From IMG/VR virus record IMGVR_UViG_2923292180_000001: DNA of 24,956 bases; one strand, written 5' to 3'. Within the stretch, counting starts at the first letter, position 1, and every line of letters begins with the position of its first letter. Origin of the DNA: a virus (taxonomy: Duplodnaviria; Heunggongvirae; Uroviricota; Caudoviricetes). Position numbers and translations under genes: made by a program. Below are positions 5,568 through 21,649 of this stretch, in pieces. Under the pieces are notes generated by a model that ran no database searches, was not told where the DNA came from, and saw only the letters and a list, made by a program, of their open reading frames with translations.

Positions 5568-5840
5568 ATACAGCGAACTCCATTGGTTTAGTTGGATATT
5601 TACTGTGCTGGACAAAAACGGTTTGCGGGGAAATCTTAGTTAAGTAGAATGACTGCGGGTGCTTGAGGCTATCTGCCTCGGGCATGGACACCAACGGCAG
5701 ATAGAGAAAAGCCCCAGTTAACATTACGCGTCCTGCAAGACGCTTAACATTAATCTGAGGCCAATTTCATGCTAGACACATGTAGGTTAGCCTCTTACGT
5801 GCCGAAAGGCACGGAGAAGCAGGCTATTGTTAACACCAAG

Positions 5841-12534: not shown

Positions 12535-12684
12535 AAAAATTCCTTAATACTGATAACTTGGCGCACTATACACACGTTCCTGAAGAAAGCTATAGTTTTT
12601 TGATGGGGTTGAAGATGGCTGGATGTCTAAAATAAACATTGCTTCATATGTTCAACTATGCGTTAATGATTGCGTCGGTTTGAA

Positions 12685-12834
12685 GAACAGACGATATACG
12701 AAGTAGTTTACTAAAGCAGTTCTCATTTCAGGTGTTATTCACTTATTCCTTCTTTGAGTCTCTCCAATTAAGTACGAAGTCGTTTCTGTTATGCAAACCA
12801 TTTATGCCGAAAGGCTCAAGTTAAGGAATGTAGA
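12685..12834 (+). promoter_or_regulatory. cspB 5' untranslated leader with cold-box-like element and cspA-type upstream box
   Basis: AACAGACGATATACGAAGTAGTTTACTAAAGCAG resembles the cspA cold box (TGACGTACAGACCATTAAAGCAG); GCCGAAAGGC lies just upstream of the SD (AAGGAATG) before the cspB ATG, as in cspA. Recalled from memory, not aligned. Confidence 0.4.
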
Positions 12835-13050
12835 ATGTCAAATAAAATGACTGGTTTAGTAAAATGGTTTAACGCTGATAAAGGTTTCGGCTTTATTTCT
12901 CCTGTTGATGGTAGTAAAGATGTGTTTGTGCATTTTTCTGCGATTCAGAATGATAATTATCGAACCTTATTTGAAGGTCAAAAGGTTACCTTCTCTATAG
13001 AGAGTGGTGCTAAAGGTCCTGCAGCAGCAAATGTCATCATTACTGATTAA
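12835..13050 (+). CDS. cspB: Cold-shock protein CspB
   Basis: 71-aa product [71 protein letters not shown] with RNP1/RNP2 motifs. Confidence 0.95.
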
Positions 13051-13331
13051 AATTCATCGCTCGTCTGTATACGATAACGAAGAAGGCTGATGCCTGAGTA
13101 GAGATACGGACAGAGTAGTGAATATTGGATCTCTTTAATAAAAAGTAAGGAGGTCCAATACATGAAACAATGGCTAGCATATTTGGCAAAATCTTAATCA
13201 GGAAAAGTATGCTAACCATTGTGGTGAAGTGCAGGTTTGCTGCATGAATAGTTTTACAGCAGAAGCTAACTGCTGGCATGGCAAAACAAAGTGCGTAAGT
13301 GGATGACTCCCACAAAAAGCACCACAATCTC

Positions 13332-14023: not shown

Positions 14024-14331
14024 ATGACTCAAGACTATGAACTGGTTGTGAAAGGAGTCCGTAATTTTGAGAATAAAGTTACGGTAACTGTAGCCTTACA
14101 GGACAAAGAACGCTTTGACGGTGAAATTTTTGACCTGGATGTCGCCATGGACCGTGTTGAAGGAGCTGCGCTGGAGTTTTATGAGGCAGCAGCCAGAAGG
14201 AGCGTCCGGCAAGTCTTCCTGGAAGTAGCAGAAAAATTGTCAGAAAAAGTTGAGTCTTATCTGCAGCATCAGTACTCCTTTAAGATTGAAAATCCTGCCA
14301 ATAAGCACGAGCGTCCTCATCATAAATATCT

Positions 14332-14335
<4 letters not shown>
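14024..14335 (+). CDS. ydfR: YdfR (DUF1327 prophage protein, 103 aa)
   Basis: Sits between holin and endolysin; stop overlaps the endolysin start (ATGA). Confidence 0.75.
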
Positions 14336-15359
<1,024 letters not shown>

Positions 15360-15721
15360 GGTAATATTAAATCGGAACATTTACATCGCGGAATGTAAAA
15401 TTTAAATAAAAAGGACTCTTCCATGAGCCAAAATTCCTGAAATCTTAAGGGTAAGATAAAAGGTCTTAATCAGAATGACACGTTTTATTAATAAATAAAG
15501 CCATTCTTTCATTGCTGTGTTTTTCTTTACAAAAGTAATCCTTGCTATGGGTGGTTAATCATGCGTTAATGGTGTTCTGGTTTGTTACAAATTTATCTGA
15601 AGCAGTCATTGTTATAATTTTATTATTTGTACCTCTTGAGATTTCCTTGTTGGTTTTTCTCTCTGATATTTTTTTTCGGACCATTCTGCCCAAGGGCTAA
15701 TTTCTTCAAAAGGTAATAATT

Positions 15722-15934
15722 ATGTCTAACAAAATGACTGGTTTAGTGAAATGGTTTAACCCTGAAAAAGGTTTTGGTTTCATCACGCCGAAAGATGGCA
15801 GCAAAGATGTGTTTGTCCATTTCTCAGCAATTCAGAGCAACGATTTCAAAACATTAACTGAGAATCAGGAAGTTGAATTTGGTATTGAGAACGGACCTAA
15901 AGGTCCTGCCGCTGTTCATGTAGTGGCGCTTTGA
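15722..15934 (+). CDS. cspI: Cold-shock protein CspI
   Basis: 70-aa product [70 protein letters not shown]; long AT-rich leader upstream. Confidence 0.95.
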
Positions 15935-16138
15935 GGTAGACAATATTACAAACCATATTCACTTTAGATGCCCGTGTTGTCATGGTTCCCAGTATAGAAC
16001 ATCATCTTTTGATGTTTCTGACATGAATCCTTTCGGGGCAAAATGTATCTTTTGTAAATCAATGATGATTACATTTGATAATATTTCACAATACTTAAAT
16101 GCCAGCCGTCTGTCGTTGGATTTAAAAAAGTGAAAATG

Positions 16139-16162
16139 AAGGCTCCTTCGGGAGCTTTTTTG
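16139..16162 (+). terminator. Rho-independent terminator downstream of the cspI region
   Basis: AAGGCTCC-TTCG-GGAGCTTTTTTGC; placed 6 bp after the stop (16131-16133) of a zinc-ribbon reading frame. Confidence 0.55.
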
Positions 16163-16205
16163 CTTGGTGTCTATTCGATGGATACTCACATACTACGGTA
16201 ACATC

Positions 16206-16436
16206 ATGAAAAAAATCATAGTTTTTTTTAACTCTGAACCAGCAGTGGTAGTGCCAGCGATGACTGGAGTTAACACCATCATGCGTGAATATCCAAATGG
16301 CGAAAAAACACACCTTACTGTAATGGCCGCAGGGTTTCCATCTCTGACCGGAGATCATAAAGTCATTTATGTAGCCGCGGATCGACATGTTACTTCAGAA
16401 GAAATTCTGGAAGCAGCAATAAGGCTCTTGAGTTGA
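16206..16436 (+). CDS. Hypothetical 76-aa protein
   Basis: ATG 16206 (ORF-track frame opens at 16164); product MKKIIVFFNSEPAVVVPAMTGVNTIMREYPNGEKTHLTVMAAGFPSLTGDHKVIYVAADRHVTSEEILEAAIRLLS; no recognisable domain. Confidence 0.4.
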   Translation: MKKIIVFFNSEPAVVVPAMTGVNTIMREYPNGEKTHLTVMAAGFPSLTGDHKVIYVAADRHVTSEEILEAAIRLLS

Positions 16437-16579
16437 TTTGATGCTATTGCATTGATAATTCAGGAAAATTCTCTTTGTCTGTTTGTGTAAAATTTAGACT
16501 ATCGTATGTTGATTATTGCGATGTTTCATCTTATCTTTTACACGTTTGCTGATCCTACCCACGTAATATGGACACAGGC

Positions 16580-17446
16580 CTAAGCGAGGTTCTTGTTTTC
16601 AAATTGTTCCGGACTGAGGCCGCCACACCAACTGTGCCGCCGCCACCGATTGTAATCACATTCGATATAATTAAACACCGTTGCCCGCATTATTTCCCGG
16701 CTGATAAAGTGTTCTCCATGGATACATTCCACTTTCAGCGAATGAAAGAAGCTTTCCACGCAGGCATTATCGTAGCAGCAACCTTTTGCGCTCATACTTC
16801 CACGCAGATTATGCCGCTTCAGTTGCGCCTGATAATCTGCTGAACAGTACTGGCCTCCACGGTCCGTGTGAACGATAACGTTCCGGGGCCTCTTACGCCG
16901 CCACAGCGCCATCTGCAGGGCATCGCAGGCCAGTTGCGCCGTCATGCGTGGCGACATTGACCAGCCAATAACGGCACGTGACCACAGGTCAATGACCACT
17001 GCCAGATACAGCCAGCCTTCATCTGTACGTAAGTACGTGATGTCTCCTGCCCACTTCTGGTTCGGGCCACTGGCGTAAAAATCCTGCTCCAACAGATTTT
17101 CTGACACAGGCAGGCCGTGTGCGCGGTAGCTGACCGGGCTGAACTTCCGGGAGGCCTTTGCCCTCAGTCCCTGACGGCGCAGGCTTGCCGCCACGGTTTT
17201 TACGTTAAAGGGGTAACCCTGAGCACGCAGTTCATCCGTCAGGCGTGGGGCACCGTAACGCTGTTTTGACCGGGTAAAAGCCGCGAGGACAACGCTGTCG
17301 CAGTGTTGGCGGAACTGCTGACGCGTGCTTATCCTTGTCCGCCGCTGACACCACGTATACCAGCCGCTGCGGGCCACCCGGAGCACGCGGCACATTGCTT
17401 TGATGCTGAACTCAGCCTGATGTTTTTCAATAAAGACATACTTCAT
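16580..17446 (-). CDS. insF: IS3 transposase OrfB (InsF), DDE catalytic domain
   Basis: 288-aa product [38 protein letters not shown]... recognised as IS3 InsF; overlaps the orfA stop (ATGA), as in the frameshift-fused IS3 arrangement. Confidence 0.9.
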
Positions 17447-17751
17447 TTCAGGCGCTTCGCGAAGTATGTCGCGGCCTTTTGGAGGATAGCCAGCTCTTCA
17501 TCCCGTTCTGCCAGCTGGCGTTTGAGACGTGCAATCTCGGTAGACATCTCCAGTTCACGTTCAGAAGACGTCTGCTGATTTTGCTGTTTACTGCGCCAGT
17601 TGTAGAGTTGTGATTCATACAGGCTGAGTTCACGGGCTGCGGCAGTAACACCGATGCGTTCAGCAAGCTTCAGGGCTTCACTGCGAAATTCAGGCGAATG
17701 CTGTTTACGGGGTTTTTTACTGGTTGATACTGTTTTTGTCATGTGAGTCAC
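17443..17751 (-). CDS. insE: IS3 transposase OrfA (InsE), helix-turn-helix / leucine zipper
   Basis: 102-aa [58 protein letters not shown]... recognised as IS3 InsE. Confidence 0.9.
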
Positions 17752-17868
17752 CTCTGACTGAGAGTTTACTCACTTAGCCGCGTGTCCACTATTGCTGGGT
17801 AAGATCATGCACCATATAATCGACTTACTGTGTAACTGGAAAGTCATAACAGACTAAAAGAGGAAATG

Positions 17869-21074: not shown

Positions 21075-21649
21075 TGGCATTCAGAATGAGTGAACAACCA
21101 CGGACCATAAAAATTTATAATCTGCTGGCCGGAACTAATGAATTTATTGGTGAAGGTGACGCATATATTCCGCCTCATACAGGTCTGCCAGCAAACAGTA
21201 CCGATATTGCACCGCCAGATATTCCGGCAGGCTTCGTGGCTGTTTTCAACAGTGATGAGGCATCGTGGCATCTCGTTGAAGATCATCGGGGTAAAACGGT
21301 TTATGACGTGGCTTCCGGCGACGCGTTATTTATTTCTGAACTCGGTCCGTTACCGGAAAATGTTACCTGGTTATCGCCGGGAGGGGAATATCAGAAGTGG
21401 AACGGCACAGCCTGGGTGAAGGATACGGAAGCAGAAAAACTGTTCCGGATCCGGGAGGCGGAAGAAACAAAAAACAGCCTGATGCAGATAGCCAGTGAGC
21501 ATATAGCGCCGCTTCAGGATGCTGTGGATCTGGAGATCGCAACGGAGGAAGAAACCTTGTTGCTGGAAGCCTGGAAAAAGTATCGGGTGTTGCTGAACCG
21601 TGTTGATACATCAACTGCACCGGATATTGAATGGCCAGCACTGCCGTAG
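21074..21649 (+). CDS. tfaQ: Tail fibre assembly protein Tfa
   Basis: 191-aa product [71 protein letters not shown]... is nearly identical to lambda Tfa from memory. Confidence 0.9.

Follow-up and report, generated by a model that had tools for sequence, protein, structure and literature searches.

Directly downstream of the cold-shock gene cspI, the stretch of DNA analyzed here (24,956 nucleotides, hereafter the window) contains an open reading frame that encodes two cysteine motifs, ends just before a terminator-like hairpin, and offers no canonical start codon ahead of its first cysteine pair. Is this frame a gene and, if so, from which codon is it translated? The original prediction, made from the sequence of the window, had put forward three answers: a pseudogene with a mutated start codon, a gene with a noncanonical start, and, speculatively, frameshifted expression from cspI.

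Identity of the open frame downstream of cspI

Translation of the window reproduced the peptide quoted in the original prediction and bore out its description of the frame. An in-frame TAG (15921 to 15923) is followed by a stop-free stretch of 69 codons at 15924 to 16133 (plus strand), which ends in a TGA at 16131 to 16133, lies in the +1 frame relative to cspI, shares the final 11 nucleotides of that gene, and encodes the CxCC...CxxC pattern. No ATG, GTG, or TTG precedes the first cysteine pair, the first canonical in-frame start being ATG 16023, and RNA folding confirmed the strong terminator that had been noted shortly past the stop codon. Taken by itself, a lone 69-codon open frame is within chance for an A+T-rich window of 25 kb, in which many comparable frames are found; its status as a gene is therefore derived from conservation across species, described below, and not from its length. 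The following features are referred to throughout.

15576 to 15721, plus strand: 5' untranslated leader of cspI, part of a cspA-type thermoregulator (Rfam RF01766).
15722 to 15934, plus strand: cspI coding sequence, 70 amino acids; last sense codon CTT at 15929 to 15931, stop codon TGA at 15932 to 15934 (RefSeq).
15924 to 15944, plus strand: seven open, noncoding codons that comprise the 3' end of cspI, its stop codon, the Shine-Dalgarno (SD) sequence, and the spacer; outside the protein and without coding periodicity.
15933 to 15936, plus strand: ynfQ SD sequence GAGG, overlapping the cspI stop codon; invariant AGG core at 15934 to 15936, 8-nucleotide spacer to the ATT.
15945 to 16133, plus strand: ynfQ coding sequence, 62 codons; ATT start at 15945 to 15947, TGA at 16131 to 16133 (RefSeq, Pfam, and YNFQ_ECOLI match).
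16136 to 16201, plus strand: ynfR, 21 amino acids; ATG 2 nucleotides after the ynfQ stop codon, open frame crossing the terminator hairpin (RefSeq).
16138 to 16161, plus strand: intrinsic-terminator-like hairpin and U tract, 4 to 6 nucleotides past the ynfQ stop codon (RNA fold).

The frame is, very probably, the known small-protein gene ynfQ of the cryptic prophage Qin, translated from an AUU codon at 15945. A megablast search with positions 15700 to 16200 found this stretch in 2144 of 5426 complete Escherichia coli genomes, with a RefSeq gene order of cspI, ynfQ/ymcF (named "cold-shock protein" or "cold shock small protein YmcF"), and ynfR. The window is of the K-12 Qin type, with 99.9% identity to strain DH1 over positions 14200 to 16549, and the DH1 ynfQ coding sequence maps onto 15945 to 16133. 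In MG1655, ynfQ (b4724; YP_009518790.1; 189 nucleotides) is annotated within "cryptic prophage Qin," 10 nucleotides past the cspI stop codon; its first codon reads att, and the DNA around the start is the same as that in the window. At the protein level, an exact-sequence look-up of the 62-amino-acid product (with Met at position 1) returned UniProt entry YNFQ_ECOLI, a product present on at least 1,000 contigs, and residues 1 to 62 matched positions 1 to 62 of Pfam model PF23641 (YmcF-like) with 109.9 bits (cutoff, 27; E value, 6.9e-32). The score against NCBIfam model NF047912 (ECs_2282 family putative zinc-binding protein) stayed below the cutoff (17.8 versus 37 bits) and points to no more than a remote similarity in the CxxC motifs.

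YNFQ_ECOLI of the K-12 Qin prophage and the gene in the window thus share an identical 62-amino-acid product, a gap of 10 nucleotides after cspI, an ATT start, and ynfR and ynfN downstream; whereas ynfQ itself shows no differences, the window departs from the K-12 prophage by a 1,258-bp insertion that separates ynfN from gnsB further downstream. The gene is, in other words, already known, being part of the K-12 reference annotation with its ATT start and belonging to a family represented in Pfam. The original prediction had seen the frame correctly but had not recognized it as a named gene with a paralog, ymcF, in the core genome. The gene order ynfN-ynfR-ynfQ-rzpQ has been given previously (PMC11551758). 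The "ynfQ" of VanOrsdel 2018 proved to be another gene, a 37-amino-acid small open reading frame between ydfJ and ydfK, and the evidence presented there is not transferable to the gene discussed here, although the data on ynfR in that paper do bear on the open frame next to it.

Conservation of the start codon and the coding frame

We collected 132 homologs, all from Enterobacterales and all with PF23641 (120 among the matches listed). The comparative set comprised 80 genomic loci from approximately 80 species (311 loci were found) and six more distant loci, and 81 sequences made up the start codon alignment. The codon aligned to 15945 was ATT in 61 of these sequences, ATC in 4, and ATG in 16. 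The aligned position is therefore a bona fide ATG start in some lineages, and, judging from the alignment, most of the family has a conserved ATT or ATC, which is not a lesion of the strain represented by the window. An ATG at the corresponding position of orthologs, which the original prediction had suggested looking for, thus does exist, but only in a minority.

Several further features of the alignment bear on this position. The open reading frame of ynfQ/ymcF, counted from the aligned codon, is 62 codons long in nearly all 81 loci, while the open frame upstream of it varies from 9 to 282 nucleotides. Among 76 unique sequences, the entropy at the first, second, and third codon positions was 0.36, 0.23, and 1.20 over codons 2 to 46 and 1.14, 1.49, and 1.34 over the seven codons directly upstream of the ATT, read in the ynfQ frame, such that codon periodicity sets in exactly at the codon at 15945. 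The A and T of the start codon are invariant in the same 76 sequences, as is the AGG at positions -11 to -9 (zero or near-zero entropy), and every locus contains TAAGG, TGAGG, or a related AGG at the same spacing. Where dS could be computed, dN/dS had a median of 0.05 and reached 0.11 at most; dS was mostly saturated, and dN amounted to 0.08 to 0.15 in the comparisons concerned. By these comparative measures, ynfQ is a genuine gene on which purifying selection acts strongly, and the same data support AUU initiation at 15945. Of the three answers offered at the outset, the noncanonical start was therefore the right one, as indicated by both the annotated ATT and the comparative data.

We also considered the second in-frame ATT (15957, codon 5) as a start codon, but rejected it: it is replaced by CTC in ymcF and is variable elsewhere, and the lineages with an ATG align at 15945. 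RNA structure that might mask the ribosome-binding site of ynfQ was not found either, as folds of 15900 to 15990 and 15915 to 15960 were no better than those of shuffled sequences (z scores of -0.95 and +0.45, respectively). As for earlier reports, the initiation-profiling preprint of Weaver et al. mentions neither ynfQ nor ATT starts, YmcF is absent from the text of "The Cryptic Bacterial Microproteome," and a literature search for ynfQ and ymcF returned expression tables and reviews only, with no primary report of the start site.

Many database entries of the family (P0008, P0010 to P0013, P0037, and others) are 70 to 71 amino acids long, having been extended at the 5' end by gene callers that chose an ATG or TTG within csp as the start, and show an isoleucine at the true start position; other entries are truncated. 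We attribute this systematic misannotation to the ATT start. Gene finders limited to ATG, GTG, and TTG will miss or truncate genes like ynfQ.

Alternative explanations for the missing canonical start

A programmed +1 frameshift at the end of cspI would dispense with a separate start codon altogether. The +1 shift site of prfB has CUU UGA as its core, and the arrangement is similar here: cspI ends in GCG CUU UGA G (CTT TGA at 15929 to 15934), and the downstream frame is in the +1 frame and open across the CUU, a relation (distance of 13 nucleotides) that recurs in 43 loci. In such a prfB-like event, the CUU codon (15929 to 15931) would slip to UUU at the UGA, producing a CspI-EVDN-YnfQ fusion of approximately 136 amino acids instead of, or beside, the AUU-initiated product. 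We deem this highly improbable. Unlike prfB, cspI has no SD-like stimulator (GGAGG- or GGGGG-like) 3 nucleotides upstream of the CUU, where the sequence reads GUAGUGGCG, and the base following the UGA is G rather than C. The putative site is also poorly conserved; in the 58 loci in which csp and ynfQ/ymcF are coupled (csp stop codon 12 to 13 nucleotides upstream), the csp gene ends in CTT TGA only 8 times and in CTT TAA 7 times, while the remaining 43 loci have CTC, CGC, CGT, GTA, CTG, or CAT as the last codon, none of which allows re-pairing in the +1 frame. Nor is the spacing fixed, with a distance of 12 nucleotides (frame 0) in seven Kosakonia-type loci, 14 nucleotides in Dickeya, and 32 nucleotides in one other locus, and the gene is retained without any upstream csp in Pseudescherichia, Atlantibacter, Enterobacter, Leclercia, Shimwellia, and others. 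Moreover, the codons that would link the two proteins lack coding periodicity, and ynfQ has an invariant SD sequence of its own as well as a start position that is occupied by ATG in 16 loci; the distance of 13 nucleotides is explained equally well by the spacing between SD sequence and start. Frameshifting as a conserved mechanism is, thus, not supported by the comparison. That the Qin copy specifically, besides free YnfQ made from the AUU, yields a low level of a fusion between an RNA chaperone (CspI) and a zinc ribbon (YnfQ) by +1 frameshifting seems to us a very slim chance. If true, it would add a second +1 recoding site to the chromosome of E. coli, with an efficiency tied to the activity of RF2 in the cold.

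Equally doubtful is translation from ATG 16023, the sole canonical start of the frame and the codon that gene callers barring ATT would choose. The resulting 36-amino-acid peptide would lack the first cysteine knuckle, and the 26 codons left out (HFRCPCCHGSQYRTS) are the best-conserved part of the family. In addition, Met27 is not conserved (the consensus has K at this position, as in EKNPF), no SD sequence precedes this ATG, and the Pfam model spans residues 1 to 62.

Finally, if the frame were a pseudogene, an ancestral ATG would have become ATT in the strain or lineage represented here, with loss of expression. This notion would fit the lack of a canonical start in the copy in the window, the ATG that some genera have at this position, and the location within a cryptic prophage that is decaying and has an insertion sequence (IS) nearby, but can be dismissed almost completely, since ATT or ATC is conserved (65 of 81 sequences, at least 12 genera, and both E. 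coli paralogs, among them the core gene ymcF, which is present in 5416 of 5426 genomes) and since purifying selection is evident from a dN/dS of approximately 0.05, a length of 62 codons kept almost everywhere, and Cys ligands that are invariant or nearly so.

Start codon and state of the upstream csp gene

With initiation at the AUU as the preferred reading, we compared the identity of the start codon with the state of the upstream csp gene, which was classified for all 81 loci by tblastn and inspection. A csp stop codon was located 12 to 13 nucleotides ahead of the start in 50 loci, the distance being 13 (+1 relation) in 43. The start codons were distributed as follows.

Intact csp, stop codon 12 to 13 nucleotides before the start (49 loci): ATT, 45; ATC, 4; ATG, 0.
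Decayed csp: ATT, 4 (one, L080, probably an artifact of a short flank of 210 nucleotides upstream, and another, L064, possibly an intact csp with a diverged C terminus); ATC, 0; ATG, 1.
Absent csp: ATT, 12; ATC, 0; ATG, 15.

All 16 ATG loci, which belong to Klebsiella/Raoultella (with csp remnants ending in ...NVVAKRG*), Citrobacter sedlakii, and Silvania, therefore have a decayed or absent csp. Among the more distant members of the family, Enterobacter and Leclercia have an ATG and no csp, Kluyvera has an ATG and a csp remnant, and Dickeya has an ATT and an intact csp. An ATT despite the absence of csp is found in Pseudescherichia, one Citrobacter locus, and Shimwellia, as well as in Atlantibacter, where it is directly followed by an ATG (ATT-ATG); since the ATT persists in these lineages, coupling cannot be the sole reason for the AUU.

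A scenario in which AUU or AUC is kept by selection where the gene is coupled to an intact csp, with drift to AUG once csp has been lost, would account for this distribution, and we consider the odds of the association being real to be about even. The upstream sequences group the ATG loci into only about four independent events, and the association is therefore suggestive rather than statistically firm. We found no earlier description of AUU or AUC being retained in connection with an intact upstream csp, and this observation may be new. If the association holds, ymcF/ynfQ would be a natural system in which to study how much product a second cistron yields under cold shock, as set by a near-cognate start codon, translational coupling, and IF3 levels.

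Some individual loci deserve mention. The csp gene of C. sedlakii (locus L012, 1258 to 1686) is degenerate (KEFN for KWFN and FVPSS for FVHFS), has lost its stop codon, and reads in frame into ymcF, which starts with an ATG in this species. In Pseudescherichia (L018 to L026 and L048, around 1484 to 1510), where csp is missing and the ATT has been kept, the ATT is overlapped out of frame by a mini-open reading frame, ATG AAA AAA GGA TAC TAT TAT TAC TAA (MKKGYYYY*), the ATG of which is missing in L041.

Proposed mode of translation

We propose that the cold-shock mRNA of cspI would carry ynfQ as its second cistron, to be translated by ribosomes that arrive partly by termination-reinitiation after cspI and partly by de novo binding at the SD sequence. 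The AUU start, which is disfavored by IF3, would probably keep the output of YnfQ far below that of the very abundant CspI and may also make YnfQ synthesis respond to the ratio of IF3 to ribosomes, as is the case for infC. A connection between the AUU and coupling is supported by the co-occurrence of AUU/AUC with an intact upstream csp.

Published data provide several points of reference. Induction ratios for cspI, ynfQ, and ynfN RNA were nearly identical, and ynfQ was labeled "cold shock induced" (PMC11228462). A mixture of reinitiating and newly bound ribosomes is supported by reporter work on stop-SD-start junctions, in which an AUU yielded 6 to 8 times less product than AUG or GUG, and about half of the initiation at the infC junction (UAA GGU AUU) was reinitiation (PMC3592434). 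Translation of AUU mRNA is selectively repressed by IF3, and the ratio of initiation factors to ribosomes goes up in the cold; in vitro, mRNAs with an AUU compete worst at low temperature and high IF3 (PMC5499595). Such poor competition in the cold would be in tension with a role of the AUU in promoting cold expression, and a limiting role appears to fit better; the tension would be eased if the AUU serves to limit output or if reinitiation bypasses IF3 discrimination.

Both infC and pcnB resemble ynfQ in combining an AUU start with a normal SD sequence and in the conservation of AUU/AUC among orthologs (PMC3592434, PMC5499595). [quoted passage not shown] In contrast to infC, ynfQ is separated from the upstream gene by 10 rather than 3 nucleotides, follows a cold-shock csp gene, and encodes a product of only 62 amino acids, and its control by IF3 is putative.

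The YnfQ protein

YnfQ contains a CPCC knuckle at residues 9 to 12 and a CIFC knuckle at residues 34 to 37. In an alignment of 46 sequences, C12 and C37 were invariant, C9, C11, and C34 were at least 90% conserved, and H6 and H13 were likewise invariant or at least 90% conserved. An AlphaFold2 model built from these 46 sequences (pLDDT of 74.5, with 82 to 89 in the core) consists of short beta-hairpins followed by a C-terminal helix. A Foldseek search of the PDB with this model gave no significant hit (best E value, 0.47), although the top ranks were taken by small Cys4 zinc-ribbon modules, namely, the MqsA N-domain, the TFIIE zinc finger, zinc-ribbon ribosomal proteins, and NrdR; a profile-based search of the sequences in the PDB yielded no significant match (E values of at least 0.049). 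YnfQ has been modeled as rubredoxin-like in a review (PMC13348028).

With two cysteine knuckles approximately 22 residues apart and short beta-hairpins in the model, the protein resembles zinc-ribbon and rubredoxin-like modules, whereas its five conserved cysteines and two conserved histidines exceed the number of ligands required for a single Cys4 site. A putative small metal-binding module, of either the zinc-ribbon or the rubredoxin-like type, is a reasonable reading of the model. Separately, Rieske proteins were among the weak hits of the PDB profile search (E values of 0.06 to 0.2, not significant): the segment CPCCHGSQY (15969 to 15995; residues 9 to 17) resembles CPCHGSQY, the Rieske box II found in the iron-sulfur subunits of cytochrome b6f.

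The paralog ymcF and related loci

ynfQ is the prophage-borne paralog of ymcF, a gene of the core genome, and both genes are part of parallel loci, cspG-ymcF-ymcE-gnsA and cspI-ynfQ-ynfR-ynfN-gnsB. They have in common their length, Cys motifs, ATT start (behind TAAGG in ymcF), terminator hairpin, and gene order, and their products are approximately 65% identical (E. coli 62-amino-acid clusters P0042 and P0043). They differ in distribution, with ymcF being chromosomal and present in 5416 of 5426 E. coli genomes, compared to 2144 of 5426 for prophage-borne ynfQ, and in the last codon and stop of the upstream csp gene, which are CTC TAA in cspG and CTT TGA in cspI; furthermore, ynfR is found in the Qin copy only and not in the ymcF locus.

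In Tenebrionibacter (L088, 701 to 919), the aligned start is TCC, with a GTG at -3 and an ATG at -24 inside csp, and the first knuckle, CPRC, has lost one cysteine; this copy may be decaying or rewired. A gene of the YnfU family (PF23499) adjoins the csp/ymcF locus on the opposite strand in Shimwellia (L087, 404 to 571) and Tenebrionibacter (L088, 1 to 174), YnfU being a further Qin-associated, putative zinc-binding small protein.

Transcript context and neighboring features

The match to the cspA thermoregulator (RF01766) spans 15576 to 15961 and the full model (1 to 428) with 112.8 bits (gathering score, 78), thereby reaching the start of ynfQ, and the CspI protein was recognized by the NCBIfam CspG, CspA, and CspE models (E values of 1e-40 to 1e-35). 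From the cspI stop codon to the ynfQ start, the distance is 13 nucleotides (a gap of 10 nucleotides). At the other end of ynfQ, the terminator hairpin (16138 to 16159) has a G+C-rich core (16141 to 16146 paired with 16151 to 16156), a UUCG loop, and a U tract that extends to 16161; its minimum free energy is -14.9 kcal/mol (z = -2.85 versus shuffled sequences). A scan for promoter and terminator consensus sequences reported the hairpin on the minus strand only, but the plus-strand stem and U6 are plain in the sequence, and an aligned hairpin also follows ymcF in the cspG-ymcF locus.

The product of ynfR, MKAPSGAFLLGVYSMDTHILR, is identical to an entry in Table 1 of PMC6001520, and SPA-tagged YnfR rose strongly after cold shock in that study (PMC6001520). 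Given that the ynfR frame crosses the hairpin, this induction implies read-through of the terminator in the cold, possibly with coupling to ynfQ translation. An alternative ynfR start, GTG 16130, overlaps the ynfQ stop codon as GTGA.

Further downstream, the window contains an intact YnfN-type open reading frame of 76 codons (16206 to 16436). Gene models for ynfN disagree: the MG1655 annotation has 51 amino acids, PGAP calls the gene "frameshifted" in DH1 and BS90R-A, and 76-amino-acid "protein YnfN" entries exist. The insertion between ynfN and gnsB (16550 to 17807; 1,258 bp relative to the Qin prophage of K-12 DH1) has flanks that are collinear at 99.9 to 100%; it carries orfB of an IS3-family transposase (16580 to 17446, minus strand), and its size matches that of IS3. 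Other Rfam matches in the window (12674 to 13066, 5657 to 5828, and 21417 to 21615) comprise a second cspA thermoregulator (158.8 bits), presumably that of the Qin gene cspB, a sok antitoxin RNA of the hok/sok type, which is consistent with the Qin genes of the hokD/relBE region, and IS009 RNA.
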